Positions 14,929-43,098 of a stretch of DNA of 43,791 bases are shown in pieces (position 1 is the stretch's first letter; each line of letters begins with the position of its first letter). Location: NCBI GenBank assembly GCA_038041915.1, contig JBBTFH010000022.1, positions 6,569 through 50,359 of the forward strand, written 5' to 3'. The position numbers and the translations under genes were made by a program. This stretch comes from Myxococcota bacterium. Lineage in GTDB: Bacteria > Myxococcota_A > Polyangia > JBBTFH01. The notes below the pieces were generated by a model, which was not told the origin of the DNA, searched no databases, and was given only the letters and a program-made list of their open reading frames with translations.

Positions 14929-15626
14929 GGCACGATCCTCCCATCCTCGAGGCGAATCGTCCGGCTGGCGGCGCGGGACACGCGCTCCTCGTGGGTGACG
15001 ACGACCAGCGTCAGGCCGTCCTCGGCGACGATGCGGGAGAAGAGCGCGATCACCTCCTCGCCCGTGTCGGCGTCGAGGTTGCCGGTCGGCTCGTCGGCGA
15101 AGACGATCGACGGCCGCGTGAAGAGGGCGCGCGCAATCGCCACGCGCTGCCGCTGGCCGCCCGACAGCGCCCCCGCCTTCGTGCCGGCAAGCGAGCCGAG
15201 CCCGACGCGCGTGAGGGCCGCGCCCGCCCGGCCGCGGGAATCCCGATCGTCGGCGGACGCCGCGGCGAAGAAGCTCGGCAGCCGCACGTTCTCGAGGCAG
15301 GTGAGCGGCTCGAGCAGGTTGAAGCACTGGAAGACGAAGGCGACCCGCTGGTTGCGGAAGCGCGAGAGAGCGCGATCCGGCAGCGCGGCAAGGTCGAACC
15401 CCGCGACGCGAGCGTCGCCGCGGTCTGGCCGACACAGGCCGCCGGCGACGTTGAGCAGCGTGGTCTTTCCCGAGCCGCTGCGGCCATTGATCGCCACGAA
15501 CTCGCCCGCTTCCACCCGCAGCGACAGGCCGCGCAGGACCGGCTGGCGGCCATACGATTTCTCGATGCCCTGCAGCTCGATGATCGGCGCCGGCAACGCG
15601 GCGGATATAGCACATGGACTGGACAT
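14925..15626 (-). CDS. ABC transporter ATP-binding protein (LolD/MacB-type)
   Basis: Walker A GRSGSGKTT, signature LSGGQRQR, Walker B IVFADEPTGNLD and H-loop VVTHE. Start ATG 15626 (alternative 15641). Confidence 0.9.
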   Translation of the reverse strand: MSSPCAISAALPAPIIELQGIEKSYGRQPVLRGLSLRVEAGEFVAINGRSGSGKTTLLNVAGGLCRPDRGDARVAGFDLAALPDRALSRFRNQRVAFVFQCFNLLEPLTCLENVRLPSFFAAASADDRDSRGRAGAALTRVGLGSLAGTKAGALSGGQRQRVAIARALFTRPSIVFADEPTGNLDADTGEEVIALFSRIVAEDGLTLVVVTHEERVSRAASRTIRLEDGRIVP

Positions 15627-15697
15627 GGCTCGTCCGGGCATCCGCGTGATAATGTGGCAACGTTCGTCGTGTCGTCGTCGATAATCAGAGTGGACGC

Positions 15698-16015
15698 ATG
15701 AAGATCCAAGGCCCCGGCGATACCCCGCCTGCCTCGCCGACCGAGGCCGGCGGCGCGGAGGCTTCCGCGCCCGTGGCTGCCACCGAGCCGACACGCGAAG
15801 CGGCCGGGGTCGACGCGCTGCGGGCGCTCGCGGAGGATCTGCGCACGGGTCGGATCACGTCCGGGCAGGCGCTCGACCGTCTGGTCGAACGCGCGGTCGC
15901 CCAGGTTGCGGGCGCTGCCAGTTCGGACACGCTCGAGCGACTGCGCGCCGCGCTGCTCGACCTCGCGACGCGCGACCCGATCCTCTCCGAGAAGCTGCGC
16001 CGGCTCGACCGTTAG
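15698..16015 (+). CDS. Small hypothetical protein (105 aa), the only plus-strand gene in this block
   Basis: ATG start and good GC3. Disordered Pro/Ala N-terminus followed by helical repeats. No family recognised with confidence. Confidence 0.5.
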   Translation: MKIQGPGDTPPASPTEAGGAEASAPVAATEPTREAAGVDALRALAEDLRTGRITSGQALDRLVERAVAQVAGAASSDTLERLRAALLDLATRDPILSEKLRRLDR

Positions 16016-22154: not shown

Positions 22155-22916
22155 TTACTCGTCGCCCTCTTCCGACTCGCTCTCCTCACCGTCTTCGTCC
22201 TCGAACTTCCCGTCTTTTTCGTCGTCGTGGTCGTCGTGGTCGTCGTCATCGTCATCATCGAAACGGACGCCACCGGCCACGACCTCGTCGTCGCCGCCGG
22301 GCTCTCCATCGCGATCGACGTCGCGGTAGAGCGTCGCCGAAGCGGCGACTCCGTCGAGGAAGCGGTCGATTGCGCCATCGTTGGCCTCGCCGTCCAGGCG
22401 CGCCGAGCCGTCCACGATCGGCAGCTCCTCGGGAGCGATGCCCGCGAGCAGCACGGCGCGGTCGAAGACGATGATCGCCGCCGCGTCGTCCGCGATTCCC
22501 GAGTCCTGTGCTTCGAACGCCAGGGCAAACGGGCGCTCCGGCGTGATCCGCAGCGGCGTGCCGTCGGCGAGCGCGCCGGTCCAGTCGATCGCGTCGACCT
22601 CGAGACGCACGCCGCAGAGAGGCTGCGTTCCCGGCAGGACGGCGACTTGCGCGAACCCGTCCGAGGCGAGGTCCACTTCCGCCAGCGGCTCGTCGATGAC
22701 TTCCTCGCTCGCGCCGCCGCCGCCGTCGCACGCCTTCGCCCGGGATGCGACGACGCGCGCGCTCGAAACGGGGGCGCGCTGTAGCCGCGGCTGATCGGCC
22801 GAGGGCTGTCCCGTGGCGCCGAGGTAGAGCGCGACGCCGTTGCCGGTTTCCGTCCCGACTTGCGGCGAGCACGCGGCGAGCAGGATGGCGAAAGATCCGA
22901 TTCGAGCGAGGATCAT
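22155..22916 (-). CDS. Lipoprotein with an extremely acidic C-terminal tail
   Basis: Track ORF 22155-23369 trimmed to ATG 22916 (MILARIGSFAILLAAC lipobox). ATGA overlap with the upstream gene. Tail DDDDDDDHDDHDDEKDGKFEDEDGEESESEEGDE. Confidence 0.7.
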   Translation of the reverse strand: MILARIGSFAILLAACSPQVGTETGNGVALYLGATGQPSADQPRLQRAPVSSARVVASRAKACDGGGGASEEVIDEPLAEVDLASDGFAQVAVLPGTQPLCGVRLEVDAIDWTGALADGTPLRITPERPFALAFEAQDSGIADDAAAIIVFDRAVLLAGIAPEELPIVDGSARLDGEANDGAIDRFLDGVAASATLYRDVDRDGEPGGDDEVVAGGVRFDDDDDDDHDDHDDEKDGKFEDEDGEESESEEGDE

Positions 22917-23815
22917 GGCTGGCTCCTGTCCTTCTCCCGGCGCGGGCGTGGCGCCGAGCCGCCGGGACGGCGCGTGAGCGGGAAGAGCTGAATGTTGAGC
23001 TGGTACACGGCTTCGCGCGCTTCGCCAGCGTCGCACGCGCACATGGCTTCCAGCAGCATGCGGCGAAGCTCGTGTACGCGGGCGACGATTTGCGCGGCGC
23101 GCGCGCGCGACATGGCCACCGTCAGGCTGCTCGCGTGGCGCTCCTCCACCGGCAGGCGATCGAGGGCCTCTTCGGCGCGCTGGATCATCGCGCGGTGGAA
23201 ATTGCGGACGGCGAGCGATTTCACCTCGGGGCCCGTCGACAGCACGGCGTCCGCCTGGACGAGTCGGCCGTCGCCGTCGCGCCGCAACAGATCGAGCCGC
23301 AGCAAGAGGTCGAGGCTGTCGGCGGCCTGCGCCGGCGTGATGGCCGGCTCGAGCTGGCGCGCGATCCACGCCGGCTCTTCGCGAAAGCCTTCCACGGCGA
23401 CGAGCTCGCGAATCGGCGGGGCGTACCAGGTGGAGTAGTAGTCGTACTCGTCGCGCTCCAGCCGGCGCACGCGCAGGTAGCTTTTCATGTGGCTGAGACG
23501 GTCGTAGTGGAGGTTGCGCTCGCCTTCGCTGCGCGCCTGCTCCATGAGTACGAGGTGGGTGAAGAACTCGCGCTGCGCGCGATCGAGGCGCAGCGCCTTG
23601 GCGAAGCGCAGGATGCTCGAAGGCGTGAGGTTGCGCCGGCCGTCCATCACGAGCTTGAGGTAGTTGGGCGCGGCGAACCCGGCCTGGCGCGCGAAGTACC
23701 GGTGCGAGAATTGCGGCTTGGTCGCCTTGAGGAAGGCGTAGGTGTCGCGCAGGAACGCCCGATAACTGCGATAGGCGAAGAGGTCGGGCTCCTGCGGGGG
23801 CGGGGTCGTCGTCAC
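22913..23815 (-). CDS. TIGR02147/DUF4423-type protein (putative HTH regulator)
   Basis: YRSYRAFLRDTYAFLKATKPQFSHRYFARQAGFAAPNYLKLVMDGRRNLT matches my recollection of the TIGR02147 N-terminus. Start placed at GTG 23815, because the track's upstream extension to 23917 runs through an AT-rich promoter-like region containing a palindrome. Confidence 0.75.
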   Translation of the reverse strand: MTTTPPPQEPDLFAYRSYRAFLRDTYAFLKATKPQFSHRYFARQAGFAAPNYLKLVMDGRRNLTPSSILRFAKALRLDRAQREFFTHLVLMEQARSEGERNLHYDRLSHMKSYLRVRRLERDEYDYYSTWYAPPIRELVAVEGFREEPAWIARQLEPAITPAQAADSLDLLLRLDLLRRDGDGRLVQADAVLSTGPEVKSLAVRNFHRAMIQRAEEALDRLPVEERHASSLTVAMSRARAAQIVARVHELRRMLLEAMCACDAGEAREAVYQLNIQLFPLTRRPGGSAPRPRREKDRSQP

Positions 23816-23872
23816 GAGCGTGTCCAGAATGCCGGTATGAGCGCGAGGGCGCAAGCCATAAAGAGCAATAAT

Positions 23873-23892
23873 CCGTATTCTGGAGAATACGG
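23873..23892. promoter_or_regulatory. Perfect palindrome CCGTATTC-TGGA-GAATACGG in the AT-rich divergent region
   Basis: 8-bp arms with a 4-bp spacer. Located between TATAAT/TATTAT-like hexamers (23903-23909) and the TIGR02147-type gene start. Candidate operator. Confidence 0.4.
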
Positions 23893-24023
23893 ACATAAGT
23901 CGTATAATATGTAGCATATCATCATGTTATAACTGATTCGTGACGTTTGTCATGTGTGCTCATGATGCTTGACGGAATTCACCCGGGAGGCCAGAGTGCA
24001 TGCAAGAAAGGGAGGGCAAACCC

Positions 24024-24713
24024 ATGCACCTCAGACTCACGACGATTTCACTTCTGCTTCTGGCCGGGTGTCCGAGCGAAGACGAGGCGGCCGACGGCGA
24101 GGCCACCGGCGGGCTTCTCTGCGACGACGCCGACGACGGCACGACGACGTGCGGCACCGACGAGAACGGCAACGGTGCCCTCGACGAGGCCGAGGTCGCG
24201 TGCAGCGACAACGATCCCGCGGAGACGGGGGAGAAGGACGATGACGGGGAGAAGCACGATGACGGGGAGAAGGACGACGACGACGTGGAGTGCAAGGACG
24301 GCGTCGATGCGAAGACCGGCGCCGCGTGCGAGGACGACGATGAGGGCGAGGAAGAGGAGAAGGACGACGACGACGTGGACTGCAAGAACGGCGTCGATGC
24401 GAAGACCGGCGCCGCGTGCGAGGACGACGACGAGGGCGAGAAGGAAGAGGACGAAAAGGACAAGGACGATGACGAAGACGGGAAGAAGAACGACGACGAC
24501 GACGGGGAGAAGGACGACGACGACGCCGAGGAGAAGCTCGAGGACGACGACGGCGACGGCATCCTCAACGGCTCCGACTGCGACGAGGTTCTGAAGGACA
24601 CGGAGGAGGGCGGCGAGTACGAGGATGACGAAGACGATGACGACGACGATGACGAGGACGCCGACGATGACGAGGATGAGGACGACGACGACGACAAGAA
24701 GGACGACGCCTAA
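24024..24713 (+). CDS. Extremely acidic (Asp/Glu-rich) lipoprotein with an internal tandem duplication
   Basis: ATG 24024 preceded by GGGAGGG. Lipobox LLLLAGC. Repeated module DDDDV(E/D)CK(D/N)GVDAKTGAACEDDDEGE. Poly-D/E tail. Confidence 0.75.
   Translation: MHLRLTTISLLLLAGCPSEDEAADGEATGGLLCDDADDGTTTCGTDENGNGALDEAEVACSDNDPAETGEKDDDGEKHDDGEKDDDDVECKDGVDAKTGAACEDDDEGEEEEKDDDDVDCKNGVDAKTGAACEDDDEGEKEEDEKDKDDDEDGKKNDDDDGEKDDDDAEEKLEDDDGDGILNGSDCDEVLKDTEEGGEYEDDEDDDDDDDEDADDDEDEDDDDDKKDDA
24270..24449 (+). repeat. Two tandem 90-bp in-frame repeat units inside the acidic lipoprotein gene
   Basis: Units start at 24270 and 24360. The first roughly 81 nt differ at only 3 positions by eye. Confidence 0.8.
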
Positions 24714-24791: not shown

Positions 24792-24825
24792 ACACTCACG
24801 TCGCCACCCCCCGTGTGTCTCATTG

Positions 24826-24879
24826 TGTGTAGTTTCATGTGTCGTATCTCTTGACGATTCAGACACATATTGCTACACA
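24826..24879. promoter_or_regulatory. Inverted repeat flanking a TTGACG -35-like hexamer upstream of the RHH antitoxin gene (candidate TA operator)
   Basis: The left arm is TGTGTAGtttcATGTGTC (24826-24843) and the right arm is GACACATattgCTACACA (24862-24879), giving 7+7 complementary positions. TTGACG lies at 24851-24856 between the arms. Confidence 0.45.
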
Positions 24880-24885
24880 TCCTGC

Positions 24886-25239
24886 ATGATCGACAGCGAC
24901 GGGGTGCTGGCCCGATGGGCGCGCGAGGCGACGCCCGCCTACGCCAAAGAGACGACGCGGCTCAATCTCCAGCTCCCTCTTGGCATCAAGGTGGCGCTGG
25001 AGCGGATCGCAAAGGCCGAAGGGCTTGCGACGCCGGAGCTGGCGCGCCGCCTGCTGGCCGCCGACGTGCGGGCGTTGGAGCGTGCCGCGCTGGGGCGCCA
25101 GGCGAGGGAATCGTATGCCGCCACGATCGGGCTCCGTCGCGGCATTTCGGACACGTGGCAGCAGGTCGATGAACGGTCCCTGGCCGATTGGCCTCGCTCG
25201 AAGCCGCGGGGGCGCCGCCGTGCCGGCAAGACGCGCTGA
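24886..25239 (+). CDS. Ribbon-helix-helix (CopG-like) antitoxin candidate
   Basis: ATG 24886 within track ORF 24823-25239. TRLNLQLPLGIKVALERIAKAEGLATPELARRLL fits a beta-strand/helix-helix RHH pattern. Overlaps the downstream toxin gene by 20 nt. Confidence 0.65.
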   Translation: MIDSDGVLARWAREATPAYAKETTRLNLQLPLGIKVALERIAKAEGLATPELARRLLAADVRALERAALGRQARESYAATIGLRRGISDTWQQVDERSLADWPRSKPRGRRRAGKTR

Positions 25240-25570
25240 CCTCGTCGCCCTCCGGAGCCAGCGGATCGGGTTCGCGCGAAAGGCGGACCAGACCGCCGCC
25301 CTCGCCGTCGTCGTGCAGAACGACGACCTGTGTGCGGTGGCGGCGCAGGTTCTGCTCGTGCCGCTCGTCCGCGTGGCCGGAGCGCAGCCCGCGTTTCCCG
25401 GCTGGGTCGTTCTCGACGGCGAGCCGGACCTCGGTGGCCGATGGATCGCCGCCACCGACGAGCTTCGCCGAGCTTCCCTCGAGGCCGTGGAGCCGGGCGT
25501 GCGCGGTCGCCTCAGCGACGACGCGATGCGTCGCATCGGCGCCGCCCTTCGGTGGGTCTTCGATCTGTAG
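25220..25570 (+). CDS. MazF/PemK-like toxin candidate
   Basis: GTG 25220 within track ORF 24980-25570. The pattern ADLVAL...ALAVVVQNDDL...VLLVPLV...WIAATDELRRASLEAV...GRLSDDAMRRIGAALRWVFDL follows the MazF/PemK layout. High GC3. Confidence 0.6.
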   Translation: MPARRADLVALRSQRIGFARKADQTAALAVVVQNDDLCAVAAQVLLVPLVRVAGAQPAFPGWVVLDGEPDLGGRWIAATDELRRASLEAVEPGVRGRLSDDAMRRIGAALRWVFDL

Positions 25571-25589
25571 CGTGACGGGTCGATCGATC

Positions 25590-26240
25590 TCAGTACCCGT
25601 ACCCGCCGCCGGGCGTCTTCTTGGGCTTGGGCTTCGCCGCGGGCGCCTCGTCTTCGGCCGCCTCGGGCGCGGCGAGATCGTCGAGCGTGAAGAAGCCACG
25701 CACGGCAATCGGCGCGGCGCCGAAGAACGTGCCGGCGGTCGAGTCGAGGAGGTCTTCGTGCAGGACGACGCCCTGCGCGGGGCCGACGGTGAGGCCGACC
25801 TCGTAGCCGGCGCGCGAGACGCCGACGTCCGAGCCGAGGTCGAGGTCGGTGGCATAGTGCCAGCCCTCGGCGATGCCGACGACGGGCAGCAGCGGCGCCT
25901 CGAACGCGTCGCCGGTGTCGACGTTGGTGAGCGTCAACGCGACGTCGAGATAGGGGACGAAATCGCCCGCGTTGCGGCCGCCGAGAAGCGGGCCGGCGTA
26001 GCGGATCTGCGCCTCGAAGTGGTACGTGCCGGCGGCGACGTCGGCGGGAGGGATGCCCCACGCCTCGGTGAGCGACGCGATCTCGAACTTCAGCGTCGCG
26101 GCGCCGCCGGCGATCGGCGTGGCGTCGATGACGACGACCTCTTCCTCGAGAGAGGGCAGCTCCGTCGCCTCCGTCGGGATCGGCTGGTCCTCGCACGCGG
26201 CGAGAAGCAGGAGGGTAGGGATGAGGGTCAGGCGCTTCAT
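25590..26240 (-). CDS. Lipoprotein consisting of a P19/FetP-like (Iron_transport-type) domain
   Basis: Lipobox LLLLAAC. Blocks YHFEAQIRYA, GGRNAGDFVPYLDV and AEGWHYATDL resemble the P19 blocks HLEADIHA, PYL and DGPHYG as I recall them. Lys/Pro/Gly tail ...KPKPKKTPGGGYGY. ATGA overlap with the upstream gene. Confidence 0.7.
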   Translation of the reverse strand: MKRLTLIPTLLLLAACEDQPIPTEATELPSLEEEVVVIDATPIAGGAATLKFEIASLTEAWGIPPADVAAGTYHFEAQIRYAGPLLGGRNAGDFVPYLDVALTLTNVDTGDAFEAPLLPVVGIAEGWHYATDLDLGSDVGVSRAGYEVGLTVGPAQGVVLHEDLLDSTAGTFFGAAPIAVRGFFTLDDLAAPEAAEDEAPAAKPKPKKTPGGGYGY

Positions 26241-27751
26241 GGGATCACCTCCGTCTGCGCCAGCTCGTCGGCTTGGAGCAGGCCGTTCATCGTCGCGTTC
26301 AGGCTCTCGACCAGCGTCACGGCGTCGCCTTGCGCGAAGGTCGTGGAGTCGCGCTCCTCGAACGCCTGAATCAGCACGGCGTCGTCGTCGGCGGCGAAGA
26401 GGTACGCGATCGTCCGGTAGAACGCGCGCGCCTCGACGCGCGCCTTGTTGTAGCCGGCGTCGTCGGCCACGAGGATCTTCTCGCGCATTGCGATGATCTC
26501 GTGGACGACCGCGAGGTACTCGACCTGGAGCAGCTCGCGTTCGACCACCGCGCGCGCCGCGTCGAAGCCGGCGCCGCCGCCGATGAGGATCGCGTTGGCG
26601 CCGCTAAGCAGCGCGGCCTCGATCGCCGCCTCCATGCCGCAGGCGATGCCGGCGCCGAAGCGGCCATCGTCGCAGTTCGTCTGCCGCTTGCCCGCCGTCG
26701 CTTCGAGCGCGCGAAAATACGCCCACGCCTCGTCCCACTTGTGCGCGGCGCCCTCCACCGCGTCGAGCGCGCCCTCGGCGATCGCCCGGCGCGCCTCGTC
26801 GATCTCGTGAAGGATCGACAGGTAGAACGCGCGCTCGATGCCCTTCTTGATCCATTCCTTGCACTCGGACGCGACGACCGCGCCGCCGGTCAAGCAGTCG
26901 GGCGCCGGGCCCGTCTGCGCGAGCGCGCTCTCGACGTTGGTCGAGAGATCGGCGAGCTGGGCTTCCGTGATCCCGCGCGCCGCGTCGTAGCCGGCGACAT
27001 CCATGCGCCCCTCGAACATGCCGGCGAGCGACGCCTCGAAGCTCGCCGCGGCGCCGGAAAAGTCATTCGCGTCGAGCGCCGCGAGGATGTCGGCGTAGGC
27101 GGCCACGCGATCGAGCTGCTCCTCGACGTCTCCGACCGGCATCTGCAAAATGCCGCCGAAGGCGACGTCACGGTCGAAGAGGACCAACGGCTCGACGCGC
27201 GCGAACAGTCCGGACGGCGGCGAGGCGTCCGCGTGCGTGGCGATCGTCATCGCGGGCGCAAGCGTGACCGTCACGCGGTACGCGTCCTCGAACGGATCGG
27301 CTTCGGAGTCGCCGGGTGGCAGGAGCACGTTGGAGGCGTAGTGCCAGCCCTCGGCGTGGCCGGCGTGAGGCACGAGGTCCATCTCGATGGTGTCGTCGGC
27401 GGACGCGGTGGTGGTGTTGACGATCGTGACGTGCACCTTCTGGTAGGGCACGAACTCGCCGGCGTTGCGGCCGCCGAGCACGTTCGCCGCCGCGTAGCGG
27501 AGCTGGAGCTCGAGATGGAAGTCGGCCAGGCCGTCCATCTCGACACCGTTCAGCAGCGTCGGGACGGTGAAGTCGAGCGGAGCCGCCTCCAGCTCCGCCT
27601 CGACGGCGCCGCCGTAGAGATCGTTCTCGGAGAGCACCTGCTCGGCCGCGAGCGCGCGCGTGCGCGGGTGCTGCGGCGGGCCTCCGGCCTCTTCGGCCTC
27701 TTCGGCGCGCGCCGCGGTGGCGCACAGCAATGCGAAGGTCAGTCGTTTCAT
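26237..27751 (-). CDS. Secreted protein: N-terminal P19/FetP-like domain fused to a long helical C-terminal domain
   Basis: ATG 27751 with a GAGAGGA Shine-Dalgarno sequence. Signal MKRLTFALLCATAARA. Blocks FHLELQLRYA, GGRNAGEFVPYQKV and AEGWHYASNV are paralogous to 25590-26240. I do not recognise the C-terminal roughly 300 aa, which are helical (KWDEAWAYFRA, LHEIDEA, VHEIIAM). Confidence 0.7.
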   Translation of the reverse strand: MKRLTFALLCATAARAEEAEEAGGPPQHPRTRALAAEQVLSENDLYGGAVEAELEAAPLDFTVPTLLNGVEMDGLADFHLELQLRYAAANVLGGRNAGEFVPYQKVHVTIVNTTTASADDTIEMDLVPHAGHAEGWHYASNVLLPPGDSEADPFEDAYRVTVTLAPAMTIATHADASPPSGLFARVEPLVLFDRDVAFGGILQMPVGDVEEQLDRVAAYADILAALDANDFSGAAASFEASLAGMFEGRMDVAGYDAARGITEAQLADLSTNVESALAQTGPAPDCLTGGAVVASECKEWIKKGIERAFYLSILHEIDEARRAIAEGALDAVEGAAHKWDEAWAYFRALEATAGKRQTNCDDGRFGAGIACGMEAAIEAALLSGANAILIGGGAGFDAARAVVERELLQVEYLAVVHEIIAMREKILVADDAGYNKARVEARAFYRTIAYLFAADDDAVLIQAFEERDSTTFAQGDAVTLVESLNATMNGLLQADELAQTEVIP

Positions 27752-27761
27752 GTTTTTCCTC

Positions 27762-29186
27762 TCATGCGGCGGTGAGCGCCTGCGTCTCGATCAGGCGCGG
27801 ATCGTTGCCGACGCGGTAGATGCGGGCGCGCTCGGGCGCTTCCGACCCGGCGATCTGCCGCGCGGCGAGAAAGCCCATCTCCATGGCGGCGTCCATGAAC
27901 ACGTAGCGGAACAGGCCCTGGCGCCCGGCCGTCCAGACGTTGCGGAAGCGTTCGACGCCGGCGAGCAGCGCGTCGCAGTCCTGCCGATAGGTCAGGTGAT
28001 AGATGGGATATCCGTGCTCGACGCGCTCGGAGAAGACGCCGAGCATGTGCGGGCGCACGTCGAAGCCGAGCGAGGCGAGGTCGCCCAGCATGCGCTCGGC
28101 CAACTCCGCGTCGGGCACGGTCCAGAGCGCGTCGCCCGGCTGGCACGGGATCTCGAGCATCAGCGAGGTCTTGCCCGGCGGCGCCATCTCGGGGCTGCGC
28201 CGGCGCGGCTCCTGGATGCGGCTCATCGGGTAGCGCGGGTCGGACACGTACATCCACGTGCTGTCGGAGACGTCGGGCAGATCGAGCAGCAGGTTCAGGA
28301 AGCGCAGGCCGCGGAAGCGCAGGCGCGAGGCTGCGGCGGTGGCAAGGCCGGGCGCGAGCTGACGCGCGAGCGCGGCCAGCGGGATCGTCGAGACGACGTG
28401 CGAGCAGGCGACGGTGCGCGCGCGGCCTTCAAAGTCGCGGAAGGTAACGGCGGCGACAGAATCGCGCTCGACCTCGAGGCCGGTGACCTCCGCGCCGAGG
28501 ATCACCTCGCTGCCGCTCGCGGAGACGTGGTCTGCGAGCCTCGCGAAGAACTGCCCCATGCCGAGGCGCGGGTAGAGGTAGCGCCGCGCATACGTGCGCA
28601 CGGGTGCGCGGCGCAGGCCCGCGAGGCGCAGCGCGACGTCGCCCAGATCGAGCAGCGAGATGCGCTGTGCCGCCCAATCGCCGGAGATCTGCGTCGCGGG
28701 GACGCCCCACAGCTTTTCGGTGTATGGGCCGAAGAAGCGGCGGTAGAGCGGCGCGCCGAAACGCGCGGTCACCCAGCCCGCGAACGTGGCGTCGTCGCGC
28801 GGGGCGAAGCGGCGGCGCAGCCGCTCCCACAGAAAGCCGCCGAGCGCGGCCACGTTCGCGCGCACGCCGAGGTTGCGGAGCAGATCGCCGGCGGCCAGCG
28901 GGTAGCGGAAGCGCTTCCCGCCCGCCAGCACGACGCTCTTTCGCTCGGCCTCGAGCAGGAGGTCGCCCGCCAGCGCGGTCACGCGCCGCTGGAGCTCGCG
29001 GTTGCCGGTGATGAAGCGGTGGCCGCCGAGATCGAAGCGCCAGCCGCGGTGCTCGACGGTGGCGCAAAGGCCGCCGGGCCGCGTCTCGCGCTCGAGCACG
29101 ATCGACGGCACGCCGCGGTCGCAAAGCTCCCACGCCGCCGCGAGGCCGCACGGGCCGCCGCCCAGGATGAGGACGGGATCCGTCAT
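27762..29186 (-). CDS. FAD/NAD(P)-binding oxidoreductase (amine-oxidase / protoporphyrinogen-oxidase-like superfamily)
   Basis: Track ORF 27762-29897 trimmed to ATG 29186 (MTDPVLILGGGPCGLAAAWEL dinucleotide-binding motif). No signal peptide. The start shares 1 nt with the porin stop (TGATG). Confidence 0.85.
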   Translation of the reverse strand: MTDPVLILGGGPCGLAAAWELCDRGVPSIVLERETRPGGLCATVEHRGWRFDLGGHRFITGNRELQRRVTALAGDLLLEAERKSVVLAGGKRFRYPLAAGDLLRNLGVRANVAALGGFLWERLRRRFAPRDDATFAGWVTARFGAPLYRRFFGPYTEKLWGVPATQISGDWAAQRISLLDLGDVALRLAGLRRAPVRTYARRYLYPRLGMGQFFARLADHVSASGSEVILGAEVTGLEVERDSVAAVTFRDFEGRARTVACSHVVSTIPLAALARQLAPGLATAAASRLRFRGLRFLNLLLDLPDVSDSTWMYVSDPRYPMSRIQEPRRRSPEMAPPGKTSLMLEIPCQPGDALWTVPDAELAERMLGDLASLGFDVRPHMLGVFSERVEHGYPIYHLTYRQDCDALLAGVERFRNVWTAGRQGLFRYVFMDAAMEMGFLAARQIAGSEAPERARIYRVGNDPRLIETQALTAA

Positions 29187-30514
29187 CAGAAGATGAAGCC
29201 GCCTCCCAGGAAGATCGAATCGGCGGCGGGCTCCGCGGCGTCGGAGACCTGGTGCTGGTATTCGCCCTTGACGACGACCTGCGCGAGAGGCTTGAAGTCG
29301 AGCCCGGCGGCGATCGCGACAATGCGGCGCGCCTCGTCGGCGGAGCGGCCGGCGATCTCCGGCACGTCGCGCTGCGTGTCGACGCGCTCGATCCGAGTCC
29401 ACGGCGCGAGCGACCAGGTCGCGGTGCGCGAGAAGAGCGGCACCAGATCGTAGGTCGCTTCGAAGTACCCGCCGAAGACGTCGGAGGCGACGAGACTCGT
29501 CCCGTCCGGATCGACGGTGAGCGAGAGCTGCCCGGCGTTGCGGACATGGCCGATGGCTCCGAGCGCGCGCAGCTCGAGGCCGCCCACGCGAAGCTGCGCG
29601 TGCCCCTCGCCGAGCGTCGTCTCGACGGAGAGCTCGTCGCCGGCGGCATCCACGACCTTGCCCTGGTCCGCGCCGCCCCAGTAGAACGAGCCGCCCGCGC
29701 GCACGTGGCGTCCGGCGTCGTAGTCGACGCGCGCGACGATCGCGACGTCCTCGCCGACGGCGTTGCGGCCGTGCTGGCGGCCCGCGGCCCAGCCGCCGGC
29801 GGAGAACTTCGTCGCGTCCATGCCGGTCACGACGTAGAGCCGGTAGAGCAGGCCCTCGAACGGCTCGCCGAAGATTCCGGCGCCGATCTCGCGCCACGTC
29901 GTCGGGATGACGCGGCGCTCGACGAGCGGCCGTAGGTTGCCGCGATACACGGTCGGCTCGTGCATCTCGTTGATGATGCCGACCGGCAGCAGCATCAGGC
30001 CCGCGCGCAGGTTGATTTCGTCCGCCAGCAGGAAGTCGAGATACGCGAACTCGACCTCCGCGACCTCCGCGTGCTCGAACTCGAACTCGACGTTCATGAG
30101 GATGCGCGGCGAGAACTTGTAACCGCCGTAGAGCACGACGCGCGGGATGTCGAAGCGGTCGACGTCGGCCGGCGCCGCGTCGGCCACGACGTTCTGGTAG
30201 TGGAACTCGCCGTAGCCGCCGAGCGAGAGGCCGCGCGTGGCTTGGTAGACCTTCGAGGCGGCGGGACCGAGGCCGTAGGCGCTTCGGTATTCTTCCTTTT
30301 CGGGCAGCACCATCTGCTCGCGCAGGCGCGCGACCTCTTCGGCGAGGATGTCGACCTTTCGATCGATCTCTGCTTCGTGCTCCGCCTCGTGCTCCGCTTC
30401 GTGCTCTTCTTCGTGCTCCGTTTCGCGCGTAGCCGCGGGCAGCGGCTCGGCGAGGCTTCCATCCGCGAGAAGGAGCGGCGTGATGAGAATGAAAGTCAAA
30501 ATCACTTTCAACAT
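29186..30514 (-). CDS. Outer-membrane porin-like beta-barrel with a His/Glu-rich N-terminal segment and a coiled-coil
   Basis: Signal MLKVILTFILITPLLLADG. ETEHEEEHEAEHEAEHEAE tract. Coiled-coil DILAEEVARLREQ. Alternating beta pattern. C-terminal ...FLGGGFIF. Confidence 0.8.
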   Translation of the reverse strand: MLKVILTFILITPLLLADGSLAEPLPAATRETEHEEEHEAEHEAEHEAEIDRKVDILAEEVARLREQMVLPEKEEYRSAYGLGPAASKVYQATRGLSLGGYGEFHYQNVVADAAPADVDRFDIPRVVLYGGYKFSPRILMNVEFEFEHAEVAEVEFAYLDFLLADEINLRAGLMLLPVGIINEMHEPTVYRGNLRPLVERRVIPTTWREIGAGIFGEPFEGLLYRLYVVTGMDATKFSAGGWAAGRQHGRNAVGEDVAIVARVDYDAGRHVRAGGSFYWGGADQGKVVDAAGDELSVETTLGEGHAQLRVGGLELRALGAIGHVRNAGQLSLTVDPDGTSLVASDVFGGYFEATYDLVPLFSRTATWSLAPWTRIERVDTQRDVPEIAGRSADEARRIVAIAAGLDFKPLAQVVVKGEYQHQVSDAAEPAADSIFLGGGFIF

Positions 30515-30520
30515 GGCGCT

Positions 30521-30549
30521 TATCTAGCCGAGGGTCTCGTGGCTGTCAA
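30521..30549 (-). promoter_or_regulatory. Sigma-70-type promoter candidate for the porin operon
   Basis: Minus strand reads TTGACA (30549-30544), 17 nt, TAGATA (30526-30521). Only 6 nt separate the -10 from ATG 30514, which implies a leaderless or near-leaderless mRNA. Confidence 0.4.
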
Positions 30550-30630
30550 CAGAAAAGACACACTAGATTACAAGTCGCTGTAGTTGCTTAATTCTTCAGC
30601 TTCGACAAAATAGTACTTGAAACTGACTTT

Positions 30631-30649
30631 GATTTTTGATTTCATTCAT
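30631..30649. promoter_or_regulatory. AT-rich Fur-box-like element immediately upstream of the FMN_bind gene
   Basis: GATTTTTGATTTCATTCAT loosely resembles GATAATGATAATCATTATC. It overlaps a TTGAAA-N17-TTTCAT promoter-like arrangement (30617-30645). Confidence 0.25.
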
Positions 30650-30654
30650 GACCG

Positions 30655-31215
30655 ATGCGGCGGCTGTCCCTCATGACGCTTCTCGTGGCCACGGGCGTTC
30701 AGGCGGAAGTCTTCCACTCGAAAGAGTCCGCGCTGCGCCTCGCGTTCCCCGACGCCGACACCGTCACGCCGAGGAACTTCTTCATCAGCGACGCGCAGAA
30801 GGCCGAGGCCGAGGCGCTCGGTGGCGCGGCGCTCGAGTCGCGCATGGTCACCTGCTACGTCGGCGCGCGCGCTGGGCAGATCCTCGGCTACGCCTTCATC
30901 GACACGCACCTCGTGCGCACGCTGCCCGAGACGTTGATGGTCGTGCTCGCGCCGGACGGCCGCGTCCGCGCGACACACCTGCTCGCGTTCCACGAGCCGC
31001 CCGAGTACCAGCCGCCGCGCCGGTGGCTGCGCCAGTTCGCCGAGCGCCGCCTCGGACCGTCCGTGCGCCTCGGCGCCGACATCGTCGCCATCGCCGGCTC
31101 GAGCATGACCTCGGAGGCGGTGACGGCCGGTATCCGCCGCGTCCTCGCACTCTACGAGGTGCTGCTGCGCCCGAGCGGTGGCGCGCGCGCCGGCGGCGTC
31201 CGGCCCGGCGCGTAG
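30655..31215 (+). CDS. Secreted FMN_bind-domain protein (likely ApbE flavinylation substrate)
   Basis: Signal MRRLSLMTLLVATGVQA. C-terminal ADIVAIAGSSMTSEAVTAGIRRVL aligns with the FMN_bind motif VDAISGATxSSxAV. Confidence 0.7.
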   Translation: MRRLSLMTLLVATGVQAEVFHSKESALRLAFPDADTVTPRNFFISDAQKAEAEALGGAALESRMVTCYVGARAGQILGYAFIDTHLVRTLPETLMVVLAPDGRVRATHLLAFHEPPEYQPPRRWLRQFAERRLGPSVRLGADIVAIAGSSMTSEAVTAGIRRVLALYEVLLRPSGGARAGGVRPGA

Positions 31216-31221
31216 GGCACG

Positions 31222-31728
31222 TTGCGCTTCGTCGTCACCGGTGAGTGGGGAAGAAATCGCCTCCTGCGGGTGATCCTCTCGCTGTTCCTCTGCTACGTGG
31301 CGCTCTTCTGGGTCACGAACTTCGTTCTGTACTTCGGCAAGATGACGCTCGCGCCCTCGTCGGTGGTCGCGTACTACCTGGGCGACGAGTCGCGCTTCAT
31401 GCAGCCGCGCTCGCTGCAGGGCCTCGCGGAGGTCGCGCACTTCCATCTGTTCGCGATGGGCATGCTGGTGATGACGCTGACGCACCTGCTGCTGTTCGTG
31501 CCGTCCTCGCTGCGCCTCAAGGGGACGCTCATCATCGCGGCCTTCGCGGCGGCGCTGCTCGACGAGGGCTCCGGATGGCTCGTACGCTTCCTGCACCCGG
31601 GGTTCGCCTACGTGAAGGTCGCCTCGTTCCTGACGCTGCAAGGCGCGCTGGCGGGGCTGATCGCGCTGATCGTGCGCGGGCTGGCGTTTCCGGAGCGCAA
31701 CGCGTACCGCGATTCGGAAACGACGTGA
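31222..31728 (+). CDS. Four-TM integral membrane protein with conserved-looking His residues
   Basis: TTG 31222. Helices LLRVILSLFLCYVALFWVTNFVLYF, VAHFHLFAMGMLVMTLTHLLLFV, LIIAAFAAALL and VASFLTLQGALAGLIALIV. The stop overlaps the apbE start. Confidence 0.65.
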   Translation: MRFVVTGEWGRNRLLRVILSLFLCYVALFWVTNFVLYFGKMTLAPSSVVAYYLGDESRFMQPRSLQGLAEVAHFHLFAMGMLVMTLTHLLLFVPSSLRLKGTLIIAAFAAALLDEGSGWLVRFLHPGFAYVKVASFLTLQGALAGLIALIVRGLAFPERNAYRDSETT

Positions 31729-32624
31729 AGGCGGCGATGCTGCTGATGGCGGCGGGCTGTGCCAGCGCGCCGCCGGCGGTCGCTCGGCCCGCACCATCGG
31801 TGGAGCGCGCCCGCTGGGTGATGGGCACGCGCCTGCGCATCGTCGCGTTTCACGAGAGCGAGGCGAAGGCCGCCGCGGCGATCGAGCGGGCGTTCGGAGA
31901 GGCGGAACGGCTCGACGCGCTGCTCAGCCATTACAAGGCGGACAGCGAGCTCTCGGCGATCAATCGAGACGCCGGCACCTGGCGCGAGGCTTCGCCCGAA
32001 ATGCTGACGTTCGCGCGTGCGTGCCTCGACGCGGCGGCGCGCACCGACGGCCTCTTCGACCCGACGGTCGGCCCGCTGGTTCGCGCCGGCGGCGCGACCG
32101 ACGCGCGCGCGCTCGTCGGCTGGCGCCTGCTCGAATTCGACGGCACGCGGGTGCGGCTGGCGCGAGCCGGCATGGCGCTCGATCCGGGCGGCATCGGCAA
32201 GGGCTACGCCGTCGACGCGATGGTCGCGGCGCTGCGCGCGGCCGGCGTCTCGCGCGCGCTCGTCGACTTCGGCGAGTCGAGCTTCTATGCGTACGGCGAG
32301 CCCGGCTTCCGCATCGCGGTGCGCGACGCCTCGGGCCAGCCCTTGGGGCCCCACGTCGAGCTGCGCGACGCCTCGCTCTCGACCTCGATGACGCGCACGT
32401 TCCCCGACCGGCGCACGCACATCTTCGATCCGCGCACCGGGCTCGCCGTCGAGACGGCGCGCACGGCCGCGGTGGTCATGAAGTCGGCGACGATGGCCGA
32501 CGTGCTCTCGACCGCGCTCTGCGTCGGCGGCGCCGAGCGCATGGACCTCGTCGAGCGCTTTCCCGGCACCTGGGCGTGGTTTCACGAACAAGGTTCCCCG
32601 CCCGTCGAGCGGCGGGCGCGCTGA
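31725..32624 (+). CDS. apbE: FAD:protein FMN transferase (ApbE family) lipoprotein
   Basis: GTG 31725 within track ORF 31245-32624. Lipobox MLLMAAGC. Blocks SELSAINR, DPTVGPLV, LDPGGIGKGYAVD and HIFDPRTG are typical of ApbE. Confidence 0.9.
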   Translation: MKAAMLLMAAGCASAPPAVARPAPSVERARWVMGTRLRIVAFHESEAKAAAAIERAFGEAERLDALLSHYKADSELSAINRDAGTWREASPEMLTFARACLDAAARTDGLFDPTVGPLVRAGGATDARALVGWRLLEFDGTRVRLARAGMALDPGGIGKGYAVDAMVAALRAAGVSRALVDFGESSFYAYGEPGFRIAVRDASGQPLGPHVELRDASLSTSMTRTFPDRRTHIFDPRTGLAVETARTAAVVMKSATMADVLSTALCVGGAERMDLVERFPGTWAWFHEQGSPPVERRAR

Positions 32625-32639
32625 CAGACAGGCTTTGGC

Positions 32640-33280
32640 TTAGACGGTACGGATCTCGGCGCGGGCCGAGTCGGCTGCCGCCGCTTCGAGGTGCGCGACG
32701 TCCGGCGACGACATGCCGCCGTGACCGCTGCCTTCTCCCAGGTGGTAGCCGGCCTCGCCGTGAGCCGTATCGTCCAGACCCTGCTCTTCCGCTTCGGCGC
32801 TGGGCCTGAGACCGAGGACCGCCTTCAGCGCAAACGCGAGCACGGCCGCTCGCGGTCACGGACAGGGCCAGCGTCAGGCCGATCGTGCAGCAGGGCGAAC
32901 TTGGTTCCGCCCAGAAGCGAGCTTCCGCCGGCGAATGCGAAGCTGTAGCCAATCGCCCACCAGATTGCCGTGACCAGGCCCGCGCAGCCCAGGCACTGCG
33001 CCAGGACCGACAGGACGTTCTTCCGTTGGACGAGGCCGCCGTAGAAAAGGGCCAGGCCCGGAAGCGTCATGAACAGCACCAAGGCGGTCGACGTCATCAT
33101 CCAGGCGTTGTGACCAGGCCCCGGGGCGGAAAGGATCTTGGGTGCGCCGTTGGTCACGTACGCCTCGAGGTCTGCCACGCGTTGCGCGAGATCGGGCGCC
33201 TCCCCCGCAAGCGCCATCTTCGCGGCCAGGGTGGCGAGGCAGACCGCCGCACCGACCATTGCTGTTTTGCCGATTCTCAT
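32640..33280 (-). pseudogene. amt: Ammonium transporter (Amt family) remnant with a large internal deletion and a frameshift
   Basis: The N-terminal roughly 115 aa are intact (NAWMMTSTALVLFMTLPGLALFYGGLVQRKN...IGYSFAFAGG). They then run into a stop at 32825. The C-terminal end is found in two other frames (TIGLTLALSVTASG, then VLAFALKAVLGLRPSAEAEEQGLDDTAHGEAGY). The roughly 270 central residues expected for the family are absent. Confidence 0.8.
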
Positions 33281-33323
33281 TGGGATGGCTTTCCTTTCTC
33301 AGAGGGGAGGCGACTAAAGGCCG

Positions 33324-42554: not shown

Positions 42555-42782
42555 ATGACGCTGACGCTCAGGGCCCGCGTGAAGGCAGGCCGGCTGGTTC
42601 TCGACGAGCCGGTCGATCTGCCGGACGGTTCCGAGGTCGATCTCGTTCCGGCCGACCAGGATGACGACCTCGAGGATGAGGACCGCGCTCGGCTGCACGC
42701 GGCGTTGGAGCGCTCGGTCGCGGAGTTCGCCTCCGGGAAGGCGATCGACGCACGCAAGGCGCTGAAGCGGCTGCCGCGGTAG
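42555..42782 (+). CDS. Type II antitoxin candidate (DUF104-like N-terminus plus addiction-module C-terminus)
   Basis: ATG 42555. MTLTLRARVKAGRLVLDEPVDLPDGSEVDLVP then an acidic linker and LHAALERSVAEFASGKAIDARKALKRL. Sits 7 nt upstream of the toxin gene. Confidence 0.6.
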   Translation: MTLTLRARVKAGRLVLDEPVDLPDGSEVDLVPADQDDDLEDEDRARLHAALERSVAEFASGKAIDARKALKRLPR

Positions 42783-42789
42783 CCCGCGG

Positions 42790-43098
42790 GTGAAGCGCTA
42801 CCGCGTCGAGATGTCGCCGGCGGCGCACGCGCAGGCGGATGCGATCGCGGCGTGGTGGGTGACGAACCGCCCGGCGGCGCGCTCGCTCTTCTCCGACGAG
42901 GCGCAGGCGGCGGAGAAACAGCTCGAGAAGACTCCCCTGGTTGGCGGCCGCTATCGACGCGGACGCGAGGGCATGCGTCGGCTCCTGCTGCCTCGGACGC
43001 GCTACCACCTCTACTACGTCGTAGACGAGGGCGCGCTGGTGGTGCGCATCCACGCGTTCTGGCACACGGCACGCGGCAAGGGACCGTCGCTGAGATAG
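42790..43098 (+). CDS. ParE/RelE-family toxin candidate
   Basis: GTG 42790. Layout YRVEMSPAAHAQADAIAAWW...FSDEAQAAEKQLEKTPLVG...MRRLLLPRTRYHLYYVVDEGALVVRIHAFWH is typical of ParE/RelE. Confidence 0.7.
   Translation: MKRYRVEMSPAAHAQADAIAAWWVTNRPAARSLFSDEAQAAEKQLEKTPLVGGRYRRGREGMRRLLLPRTRYHLYYVVDEGALVVRIHAFWHTARGKGPSLR

Follow-up and report, generated by a model that had tools for sequence, protein, structure and literature searches.

Gene organization of the locus

We analyzed a 43.8-kb stretch of DNA from a Myxococcota bacterium (contig JBBTFH010000022.1), referred to below as the window, in which seven genes form two tightly packed divergent operons around a 140-bp spacer. The operons encode the flavin transferase ApbE, a secreted flavin mononucleotide (FMN)-binding protein of the FMN_bind type, a membrane protein with four transmembrane (TM) helices, an outer-membrane porin, a flavin adenine dinucleotide (FAD) protein, and two proteins with P19-like domains, one of them fused to a Fea1-like domain. 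We read the cluster, with belief and doubt evenly balanced, as a Fur-regulated iron-acquisition locus that is induced by iron starvation and built of separable modules, of which a core would reduce Fe(III) and an add-on would hold the iron. Open reading frames (ORFs) were called with the guanine-cytosine (GC) content of the codon positions in this window of about 70% GC. Profile searches followed, and together they confirmed the seven genes and their arrangement. The genes are listed below, each operon in its order of transcription.

Minus operon:
29186-30514, minus strand: porin-like outer-membrane beta-barrel, 442 amino acids (aa), signal peptide, N-terminal coiled coil, C-terminus ...GGGFIF
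27762-29186, minus strand: FAD protein, 474 aa, cytoplasmic, no signal peptide, amine-oxidase / UDP-galactopyranose-mutase superfamily (PRK07208.1-3)
26237-27751, minus strand: P19–Fea1 fusion, 504 aa, secreted, N-terminal P19 domain and C-terminal helical Fea1-like domain
25590-26240, minus strand: P19-like lipoprotein, 216 aa, lipobox LLAAC, start overlapping the stop of the P19–Fea1 gene by 4 nt

Shared spacer:
30515-30654: divergent control region, 140 bp, 39% GC against about 70% in the window

Plus operon:
30655-31215, plus strand: FMN_bind-type protein, 186 aa, secreted (signal peptide), predicted ApbE substrate
31222-31728, plus strand: four-TM inner-membrane protein, 168 aa, TTG start 6 nt after the FMN_bind gene, family PF27139 (Aq_1264_TM)
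31725-32624, plus strand: ApbE flavin transferase lipoprotein, GTG start overlapping the stop of the four-TM gene, lipobox MAAGC, signal MKAAMLLMAAGC

The ATG of the FAD gene overlaps the porin stop codon by 1 nt, and the two genes appear to be translationally coupled. The gene content and coordinates of the two operons agree with the original prediction, as does the AT-rich character of the spacer. The same prediction stated that FTR1, FeoB, TonB-dependent receptors, and ATP-binding cassette (ABC) importers are missing. The first three were not found among the ORFs supported by third-codon-position GC (GC3) that were scanned across the window, and the FTR1 profile PF03239 matched neither the window ORFs nor the 20 kb around a related locus, L001. 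As for ABC importers, a single ABC ATPase domain is encoded at 14925-15854, about 10 kb from the cluster.

A conserved four-gene core

The four-TM family was found in 349 stretches by a scan of one genome per species, and 80 loci were analyzed by local tblastn. An FMN_bind ortholog lies directly upstream of the four-TM gene in all 79 testable loci. Of the 71 loci with enough sequence around the four-TM gene, 63 have a porin ortholog within 3 kb of it, with the porin on the same strand in 60. For ApbE, 58 loci could be judged, and 52 of them carry the gene within 3.8 kb. The conserved unit is therefore porin, FMN_bind, four-TM protein, and ApbE, present in at least 80 loci that span Myxococcota, Binatia, Krumholzibacteriota, Latescibacterota, Entotheonella, Bdellovibrionota, Wallbacteria, and others. 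The FAD, P19–Fea1, and P19 genes form an add-on in only three to four genomes, and this ended the idea that the seven-gene set as a whole is the conserved unit. Among the core loci, L003 and L001, whose contig is also that of L012, were the only ones in which tblastn detected P19 and FAD genes. When metagenomes were scanned for additional close copies of the full set, nothing beyond distant Fea1-like genes was retrieved.

The relatives of the window show how the modules are combined. L001, from a Deltaproteobacteria metagenome-assembled genome (MAG), carries all seven genes on one strand in the order porin, FAD, P19–Fea1, P19, FMN_bind, four-TM, ApbE, and L003 has the same order as far as its contig extends. 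Because the seven genes are collinear in L001, we regard the two operons of the window as one functional set. This collinearity and the Fur-box-like sites at both ends of the spacer bear out the suggestion that the two operons are linked beyond chance. L002 (37% identical) encodes a DtxR-type repressor, a cytochrome c–FTR1 fusion, P19–Fea1, P19, and a porin homolog (27% identical), with no flavin genes. L023 encodes Fur, then an 812-aa di-cytochrome c–FTR1 fusion that replaces the porin, then FMN_bind, four-TM, and ApbE. A matching cytochrome c–FTR1 hit in L042 was seen by tblastn alone and is partial, on a 2-kb contig. In L088, the genes after P19 are unrelated.

Control region and probable iron regulation

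Two operator-like sites lie at the spacer.

30490-30510: Fur-box-like operator 1, a perfect 7-7-7 palindrome TGAAAGT-N7-ACTTTCA, TGAAAGTCAAAATCACTTTCA, overlapping porin codons 2-8
30618-30644: Fur-box-like operator 2, an array of TGAnnn hexamers, TGAAACTGACTTTGATTTTTGATTTCA, ending 10 nt before the FMN_bind ATG

The two operators form a 20-nt inverted repeat with 85% complementarity. The only Fur-box-like matches in the whole window are at 30496-30510 and 30618-30632, against 0.04 expected, and these two boxes sit at opposite ends of the divergent spacer. The generalized box, TGAAAAT-N-ATTTTCA, is one base per half-site off the classical Fur box. With up to three mismatches allowed, 92 hits to this box were found in 1.09 Mb from 69 loci, and 57 of them are in module promoters, counted as the 500 bp ahead of the porin gene together with the ApbE promoter bin. 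Near-classical Fur boxes, for example TGATAATGATTTTCA and TGATAATCATTATCG, are present in several loci. A Fur-family gene about 4.8 kb upstream belongs to a cluster present in 26 loci, and a DtxR-type gene abuts the porin gene in 5 loci. A sigma-70 scan of 25300-33000 gave no sites and is uninformative for a GC-rich, probably myxobacterial genome.

Directly upstream of the Fur gene, we also observed a conserved ORF of about 100 aa (L013 5025-5330, L023 5115-5513, L026 2706-3053). It carries the motif ...EELKAAAEKLG...REEKLLREVGYR.RSG, occurs in core-bearing loci of Binatia and Deltaproteobacteria type, and has no Pfam match.

The predicted flavinylation genes and the four-TM protein

ApbE is clearly assigned, with 171 bits to PF02424 (gathering threshold, GA, 25.6). 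The FMN_bind protein of the window scores 19.1 bits to PF04205, under the GA of 22, and orthologs with 43-57% identity score 34.1 and 25.7 bits. In agreement with the prediction, the plus operon encodes ApbE and a putative substrate of the FMN_bind type. The flavinylation motif is predicted at the following position.

31087-31113, plus strand: predicted flavinylation motif A-I-A-G-S-S-M-T-S, residues 145-153

The consensus of 81 orthologs is G-[IV]-[TAS]-G-[AS]-[TS]-L-[ST], and the window motif falls within that range. Ser150 is the likely flavin acceptor.

The four-TM protein belongs to PF27139. Membership is a precomputed Pfam assignment (PF27139.1), which covers the window protein (P0009) and 119 listed homologs. 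The family has more than 1,758 homologs, 55-69% identical across phyla, in 807 clusters at 50% identity. The N-terminus is conserved from residue 1 and includes the segment MRFxVTGEWxRN. Invariant residues include E70, H73, H75, H88, W119, R122, and K132; the three invariant His are all on TM2, and conserved residues are found on both membrane faces. The AlphaFold2 (AF2) model has a predicted local distance difference test (pLDDT) score of 86 and shows four TM helices and a short loop helix. DUF4405 was among the profiles that the original prediction named for checking, and an assignment to it was not supported. Pfam matches to DUF4405, PepSY_TM, MsrQ-like, and Ferric_reduct were absent at E ≤ 0.1, and we rejected a DUF4405, MsrQ, or PepSY identity on these grounds and by the wrong number of helices and His. 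A profile of the family had no match among PDB sequences. In the Foldseek search of the model against the PDB, the best E-value was 0.6 with TM-scores below 0.5, so that leukotriene C4 (LTC4) synthase/MAPEG (best match) and heme A synthase (rank 13) are not meaningful relatives. A literature search on Aq_1264 returned no paper on the family.

Fusion and tandem forms, all from uncultured material, gave information on topology (P0146, P0152, P0153 and others; P0132, P0133, P0171; P0147; P0161). The four-TM protein is fused to ApbE through a Lys/Arg-rich linker and a fifth TM helix, to a PilZ domain, and, in the singleton P0161 on one short contig, to a cytoplasmic DtxR C-terminal metal-binding domain and a FeoA domain. 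Because the C-terminal fusion partners are cytoplasmic, the C-terminus, and thus the N-terminus, is predicted to be cytoplasmic as well. This would place E70, H73, and H75 at the periplasmic end of TM2 and H88 near its cytoplasmic end. In the tandem 8-TM forms, E70 and H73 are retained by the first half alone, whose counterparts of H75 and H88 are lost, and the second half shows the reverse pattern. Since these forms lose the invariant residues in a complementary manner, the four-TM protein probably acts as a dimer. With three His per pseudo-dimer, one interfacial site and one deep His fit better than a four-His di-heme wire.

The P19 and Fea1 domains

Both minus-operon proteins that had been predicted to carry P19-like domains do so by profile, and the fusion does so by fold as well. 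The P19 domain of the fusion scores 38.9 bits to PF10634 (Iron_transport/P19; GA 21), and the lipoprotein, predicted as a second copy of that domain at the end of the operon, scores 38.0 bits. A profile of eight P19 domains matched the PDB entries of FetP, HftA, FtrA, CjP19, and Tp34 at E 1e-11 to 1e-8. For the N-terminal domain of the fusion, Foldseek returned HftA, FetP, and P19 structures at probability 1.0. The target-normalized TM-scores were 0.55-0.67 to 8T7M, 3NRP, 3LZL, and 8VV5 for a domain modeled at pLDDT of about 60-70. The AF2 model of the whole fusion has a mean pLDDT of 78, and its C-terminal part of about 300 residues is helical at about 90. This helical part was described originally as unrecognized. 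The fusion itself is correct, but the domain is recognizable as Fea1, a family of iron assimilation, since residues 205-350 score 27.9 bits to PF07692 (GA 25). The match to the NCBIfam equivalog FEA1_rel_lipo (NF038033) has E 1e-15 and 57 bits, below the cutoff of 250. The Fea1-like domain carries invariant LHExDE, GAAHxxDEAW, and VHE motifs. A relation to imelysin/EfeM had also been suggested for checking, and no likeness appeared: the domain has no PDB sequence match at E ≤ 10, and the 50 best listed Foldseek matches contain no imelysin/EfeM entry, although the domain is modeled with confidence (pLDDT about 90). An analogy to EfeO through an imelysin-like fold was accordingly rejected, the domain having no PDB match by sequence or fold. 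P19–Fea1 proteins are rare, with only 8-10 among 5.8 billion proteins. The Fea1 relatives ISIP2a and Ot-Fea1 bind ferric iron (PMC7676907).

The metal sites of the P19 domains are changed from the canonical form. In FetP numbering, His44, His97, and His127 are conserved in the window domains, and Met90 is replaced by His in the fusions (VPHAGH) and by Val, Gly, or Ile in the lipoproteins. The lipoprotein of the window keeps the copper-site His residues, has Val for the Met ligand, and carries the motif H-F-E-A-Q. The canonical copper site of three His and one Met (FetP H44, M90, H97, H127') is thus incomplete in its Met. Glu46 of FetP is kept, Asp48 is replaced by Gln, and Asp94 by Glu. The iron (Mn) site of CjP19 consists of Glu3, Glu44, Asp46, and Asp92 (PMC9174327). 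In this numbering, Glu44 is kept, Asp92 is replaced by Glu, and Asp46 by Gln in both domains, and an invariant N-terminal Glu is a possible counterpart of Glu3. The alignment therefore confirms the predicted H-x-E-x-Q in place of H-x-E-x-D in both domains and identifies the changed position as a metal ligand.

Two side observations concern these families. In the marine metagenome loci L089-L168, FecBCD-like ABC components, assigned by sequence reading alone, often adjoin Fea1-like genes (ATPase in 29 loci, binding protein in 19, and permease in 18). In P0007 and P0008, two P19-like domains are separated by a hydrophobic segment, and the copper-site His and the Glu of H-x-E are replaced (DLRLQV, DIYLQL). 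These P19 folds probably no longer bind copper or iron in the canonical way.

The FAD protein and the porin

The FAD protein was predicted to be a signal-less FAD/NAD(P) oxidoreductase. It is a signal-less FAD protein, but a redox role is doubtful. It scores 410 bits (cutoff 380) to NF005547, the PRK07208.1-3 model annotated only as "hypothetical protein", and it matches PF01593 (Amino_oxidase) and NAD_binding_8 in Pfam. Its best PDB relatives are eukaryote-type UDP-galactopyranose mutases (E 4e-18, full length), with which it shares conserved HGYP and GRxGxxRY segments. A dedicated NAD(P)H-linked donor was rejected as an identity, the nearest solved relatives being non-redox UDP-galactopyranose mutases. 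Of 80 metagenome loci, 8 encode a homolog of the FAD protein together with a distantly related Fea1-like lipoprotein, and none of these eight carries the core. Because of this company and of the nearness to UDP-galactopyranose mutases, the FAD protein is probably not the redox input or electron donor. As its homologs accompany Fea1-like genes in those loci, a link to the Fea1 protein is more likely than one to the electron supply of the flavin core.

In the eight loci (L091, L093, L094, L095, L098, L129, L147, L165), the FAD homologs are 25-33% identical over the full length and directly adjoin the Fea1-like gene in at least five. The neighbors of the L094 pair read, by sequence alone, as an NAD-dependent epimerase, a family-2 glycosyltransferase membrane protein, and an Fe3+-type binding protein, and the L094 Fea1 protein has a long Ser/Gly linker. 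This setting suggests a gene pair of Fea1 and a UDP-galactopyranose-mutase-like protein, perhaps for glycosylation.

The porin protein of the window has no Pfam match. In a profile search, 43 porin orthologs gave matches to Porin_O_P (11, best E 7.7e-7), BBP2 (11), and OMP_b-brl (10). All orthologs end in a C-terminal aromatic residue, and the N-terminal coiled coil is common to them. The window protein carries one additional feature.

30368-30424, minus strand: E/H-rich tract ETEHEEEHEAEHEAEHEAE, porin residues 31-49 (from translation), between the signal peptide and the coiled coil

A porin with a metal-binding-looking tract was a part of the original prediction. The protein is probably an outer-membrane beta-barrel and does carry the tract, but a comparable stretch is found in none of 72 porin homologs. 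The tract is lineage-specific and not a family feature.

Neighboring genes

The neighbors of the cluster are unrelated to it and include a DUF4423 regulator, acidic lipoproteins, a thrombospondin-repeat protein, and an SNF2 helicase. Of the 399 positions in the ammonium-transporter domain, an ORF at 32825-33298 (minus strand), which ends about 200 bp from the 3' end of the ApbE gene, has just the initial 72. This ORF resembles a truncated remnant of amt, a hint that the cluster was rearranged or received an insertion at that edge. Two lipoprotein-like ORFs at 24000-24713 (plus strand) and 22155-23369 (minus strand) flank the DUF4423 regulator at 22913-23917. They have no Pfam match and carry extremely Asp/Glu-rich tails with poly-Asp runs (one: DDDDDDDHDDHDDEKDG), and they could be cation-binding envelope proteins. 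At 24823-25570 (plus strand), a small ORF precedes one with a weak PemK/MazF-like match (17 bits, sub-threshold). The two are convergent on the P19 lipoprotein gene and may be a toxin-antitoxin pair. A ParE toxin match was found at 42766-43098.

Proposed mechanism and alternatives

In the proposed mechanism, ApbE would attach FMN covalently to Ser150 of the secreted FMN_bind protein. The four-TM protein, probably as a dimer, would link this flavoprotein with the quinol pool of the membrane or with a donor in the cytoplasm, and the electrons may pass through the invariant Glu/His cluster at the periplasmic end of TM2 and through His88 deeper in the membrane. The reduced flavin would reduce Fe(III) species admitted by the dedicated porin. 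In the lineages with the add-on, the secreted P19–Fea1 protein and the P19 lipoprotein would hold iron in the periplasm, as Fe(III) on the Fea1 domain and as Fe(II) on the P19 domains next to their modified, Met-less, His-rich copper site. The iron would then be handed to an inner-membrane importer encoded elsewhere. A pathway of envelope metal (Fe/Cu) reduction and capture, different from FtrABCD and EfeUOB, had been predicted originally. Its iron role is backed by the Fur and DtxR neighbors, the cytochrome c–FTR1 fusion in the place of the porin, and the Fea1 domain. The claimed difference is half true. FTR1 is missing from the window, but the relatives L002, L023, and L042 pair with cytochrome c–FTR1. 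Because relatives of both modules do so, an FTR1 may be encoded elsewhere in this genome. As a more specific proposal, in which our doubt is somewhat larger than our belief, PF27139 would be a new inner-membrane partner class for ApbE-flavinylated proteins. Together with the porin it would form a compact, Fur-controlled, FTR1-independent iron pathway in many uncultured Gram-negative phyla, with the four-TM protein as a quinol/flavin link or as an Fe2+ channel.

Several points weigh against the proposed mechanism. The FMN_bind score is below the Pfam cutoff, and the A-G-S-S motif departs from the canonical S/T-G-A-T/S. The four-TM protein has only three invariant His, and the 8-TM tandems keep three in total, which does not fit a bis-His di-heme wire. 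Searches by PDB fold and sequence showed no similarity to a cytochrome or quinol dehydrogenase. The mechanism assigns no part to the FAD protein. An inner-membrane iron importer is not encoded among the window ORFs scanned, and the pathway as drawn is incomplete in this step. More than 95% of the core loci lack the P19, Fea1, and FAD genes, which may therefore act independently. The known carriers are metagenome-derived, as all 80 listed loci are MAG or isolate-bin assemblies.

The main alternative function for the four-TM protein is an inner-membrane channel for Fe2+ (or Mn2+) that replaces FTR1, in which the Glu70/His73/His75 cluster and His88 would line the ion path and the FMN protein would use an unlinked donor. 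It is the sole inner-membrane protein encoded in the cluster of the window and in most core loci, which otherwise have no permease, and in the comparison of the window with L002 the FMN_bind and four-TM proteins occupy the place of cytochrome c and FTR1. The E-x-x-H-x-H motif at the periplasmic mouth with one deep His resembles a metal path more than a heme wire, and the retention of only three His in the tandem forms agrees with this. The P0161 fusion to DtxR-type metal-binding and FeoA domains points in the same direction, but it is a single case. However, L023 encodes both FTR1 and the four-TM protein and L042 shows hits to both, and the two are therefore not simple alternatives. A channel would also leave the flavoprotein without an encoded electron source, unlike the other described ApbE-associated systems (PMC8238504), and Foldseek against the PDB found no similarity to a known transporter fold. 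We consider a channel fairly unlikely. In the known flavinylated extracytosolic systems, a partner in the membrane is always required for electron transfer, and several of these systems are linked to iron assimilation (PMC8238504; PMC10979944). Because of this need and because L023 encodes FTR1 as well as the four-TM protein, we favor the electron link over the metal channel.

The other alternatives concern the relation between the modules, the direction of the electrons, and the substrate. The FAD, P19–Fea1, and P19 genes could be an independent iron-binding unit that uses an FTR1 elsewhere and shares only iron regulation with the core. The small number of genomes with the add-on compared with at least 80 core loci, the P19–Fea1 gene of L002 that goes with cytochrome c–FTR1 and no flavin module, the FAD homologs beside Fea1-like genes in eight unrelated core-less loci, and the unrelated genes after P19 in L088 would all be expected from such an arrangement. 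Mere juxtaposition is nevertheless rather unlikely, given that in the window, L001, and L003 the three genes are inserted so as to separate the porin from the other core genes, with start and stop codons that overlap, and that the seven genes of L001 lie on one strand with short gaps. Electrons could also flow in reverse, with the FMN and four-TM proteins as a sink for Fe(II) oxidation at P19/FTR1, similar to FtrB/FtrD or EfeB. In uptake of the FTR1 type, transport is coupled to ferroxidation, for which an electron acceptor is required (PMC9174327), P19 is a Cu/Fe protein of such systems, and the L023 module lies directly behind the cytochrome c–FTR1 fusion, with the matching hit in L042. Most core loci, however, encode neither FTR1 nor P19, the window P19 domains are without the copper-site Met ligand, and by general flavin chemistry an FMN of low potential would accept electrons from Fe(II) poorly, which makes reverse flow improbable. 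A substrate other than iron (Cu, Mn, Zn, or a non-metal oxidant), with regulators of the Zur, Mur, or MntR types, appears very improbable. P19 proteins bind copper, DtxR- and Fur-family members also sense Mn or Zn, and TGAAAAT-N-ATTTTCA differs from the classical Fur box, but FTR1, Fea1, and P19 all indicate iron and several loci have the near-classical boxes TGATAATGATTTTCA and TGATAATCATTATCG.

Comparison with known systems

Flavinylated extracytosolic proteins are an emerging third general route for extracytoplasmic electrons, beside cytochromes and thioredoxins. The two surveys of flavinylation describe other membrane partners, namely NapH-, MsrQ-, PepSY-, DsbD-, and Nqr/Rnf-like proteins and DUF4405 (PMC8238504; PMC10979944). 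The present locus shares with the described flavinylation/iron systems ApbE, a secreted FMN_bind-type protein, a small membrane protein with invariant His, iron regulation (here predicted from the boxes), and adjacent iron transport genes (Méheust et al., 2021, eLife, PMC8238504; Huang et al., 2024, PMC10979944). It differs from them by a dedicated outer-membrane porin in the conserved unit. The PepSY-like, MsrQ-like, and DUF4405 cytochromes have four conserved His forming two bis-His heme sites, with six TM helices in DUF4405. The partner here is a PF27139 protein with four TM helices, three invariant His, and no PDB relative, and it does not conform to that pattern. The Listeria locus for flavin-based extracellular electron transfer, which comprises Ndh2, EetA/EetB, PplA, and FmnB, leads to Fe(III) reduction. 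It follows the same logic of a flavin transferase, an FMN_bind lipoprotein, and small membrane proteins, but the FAD protein here is UDP-galactopyranose-mutase-like and not an NADH dehydrogenase.

P19 has been found together with FTR1 and FMN_bind in 260 flavinylation clusters, mostly Gram-positive (PMC8238504). Those clusters and the window both encode the P19 family beside FMN_bind and ApbE. Here, in contrast, the locus has no FTR1, the host is Gram-negative, a porin is present, P19 is fused to Fea1, and the copper-site Met and the iron-site Asp46 are replaced. A periplasmic P19-fold protein is also common to C. jejuni P19–cFtr1, E. coli FetMP, Bordetella/Brucella FtrABCD, and EfeUOB, and the P19–Fea1 protein resembles the Cup–M75 layout of EfeO in joining a beta-sandwich metal domain to a helical iron-binding domain. 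Unlike the FTR1-dependent systems, the locus encodes no FTR1, cupredoxin, polyferredoxin, or DyP peroxidase, and unlike EfeUOB, its helical domain is Fea1-like and not imelysin/EfeM, as judged from the 50 best listed Foldseek matches. Against the Fea1 profile of the algal FEA1/ISIP2a phytotransferrins (PF07692), a family that is induced by low iron and binds Fe(III), the C-terminal 300 aa of the fusion score above threshold. The protein here differs in being bacterial, periplasmic, and fused to P19, and in its 57 bits against the NCBIfam cutoff of 250.

The locus thus belongs to the known kind of ApbE-dependent, iron-linked redox system, within which the undescribed membrane partner, the dedicated porin, the P19–Fea1 fusion of this lineage, and the lack of FTR1 in cis set it apart. 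Each described flavinylated case relies on a known class of membrane partner, and PF27139 is a further candidate, in a clear iron-regulated setting with its own porin. If the proposed reading is true, Myxococcota, Binatia, Latescibacterota, and related groups known mostly from metagenomes would possess a compact route of iron uptake. The P19–Fea1 protein with its Met-less, four-His site would be a natural experiment on how the metal sites of P19 can be retuned.

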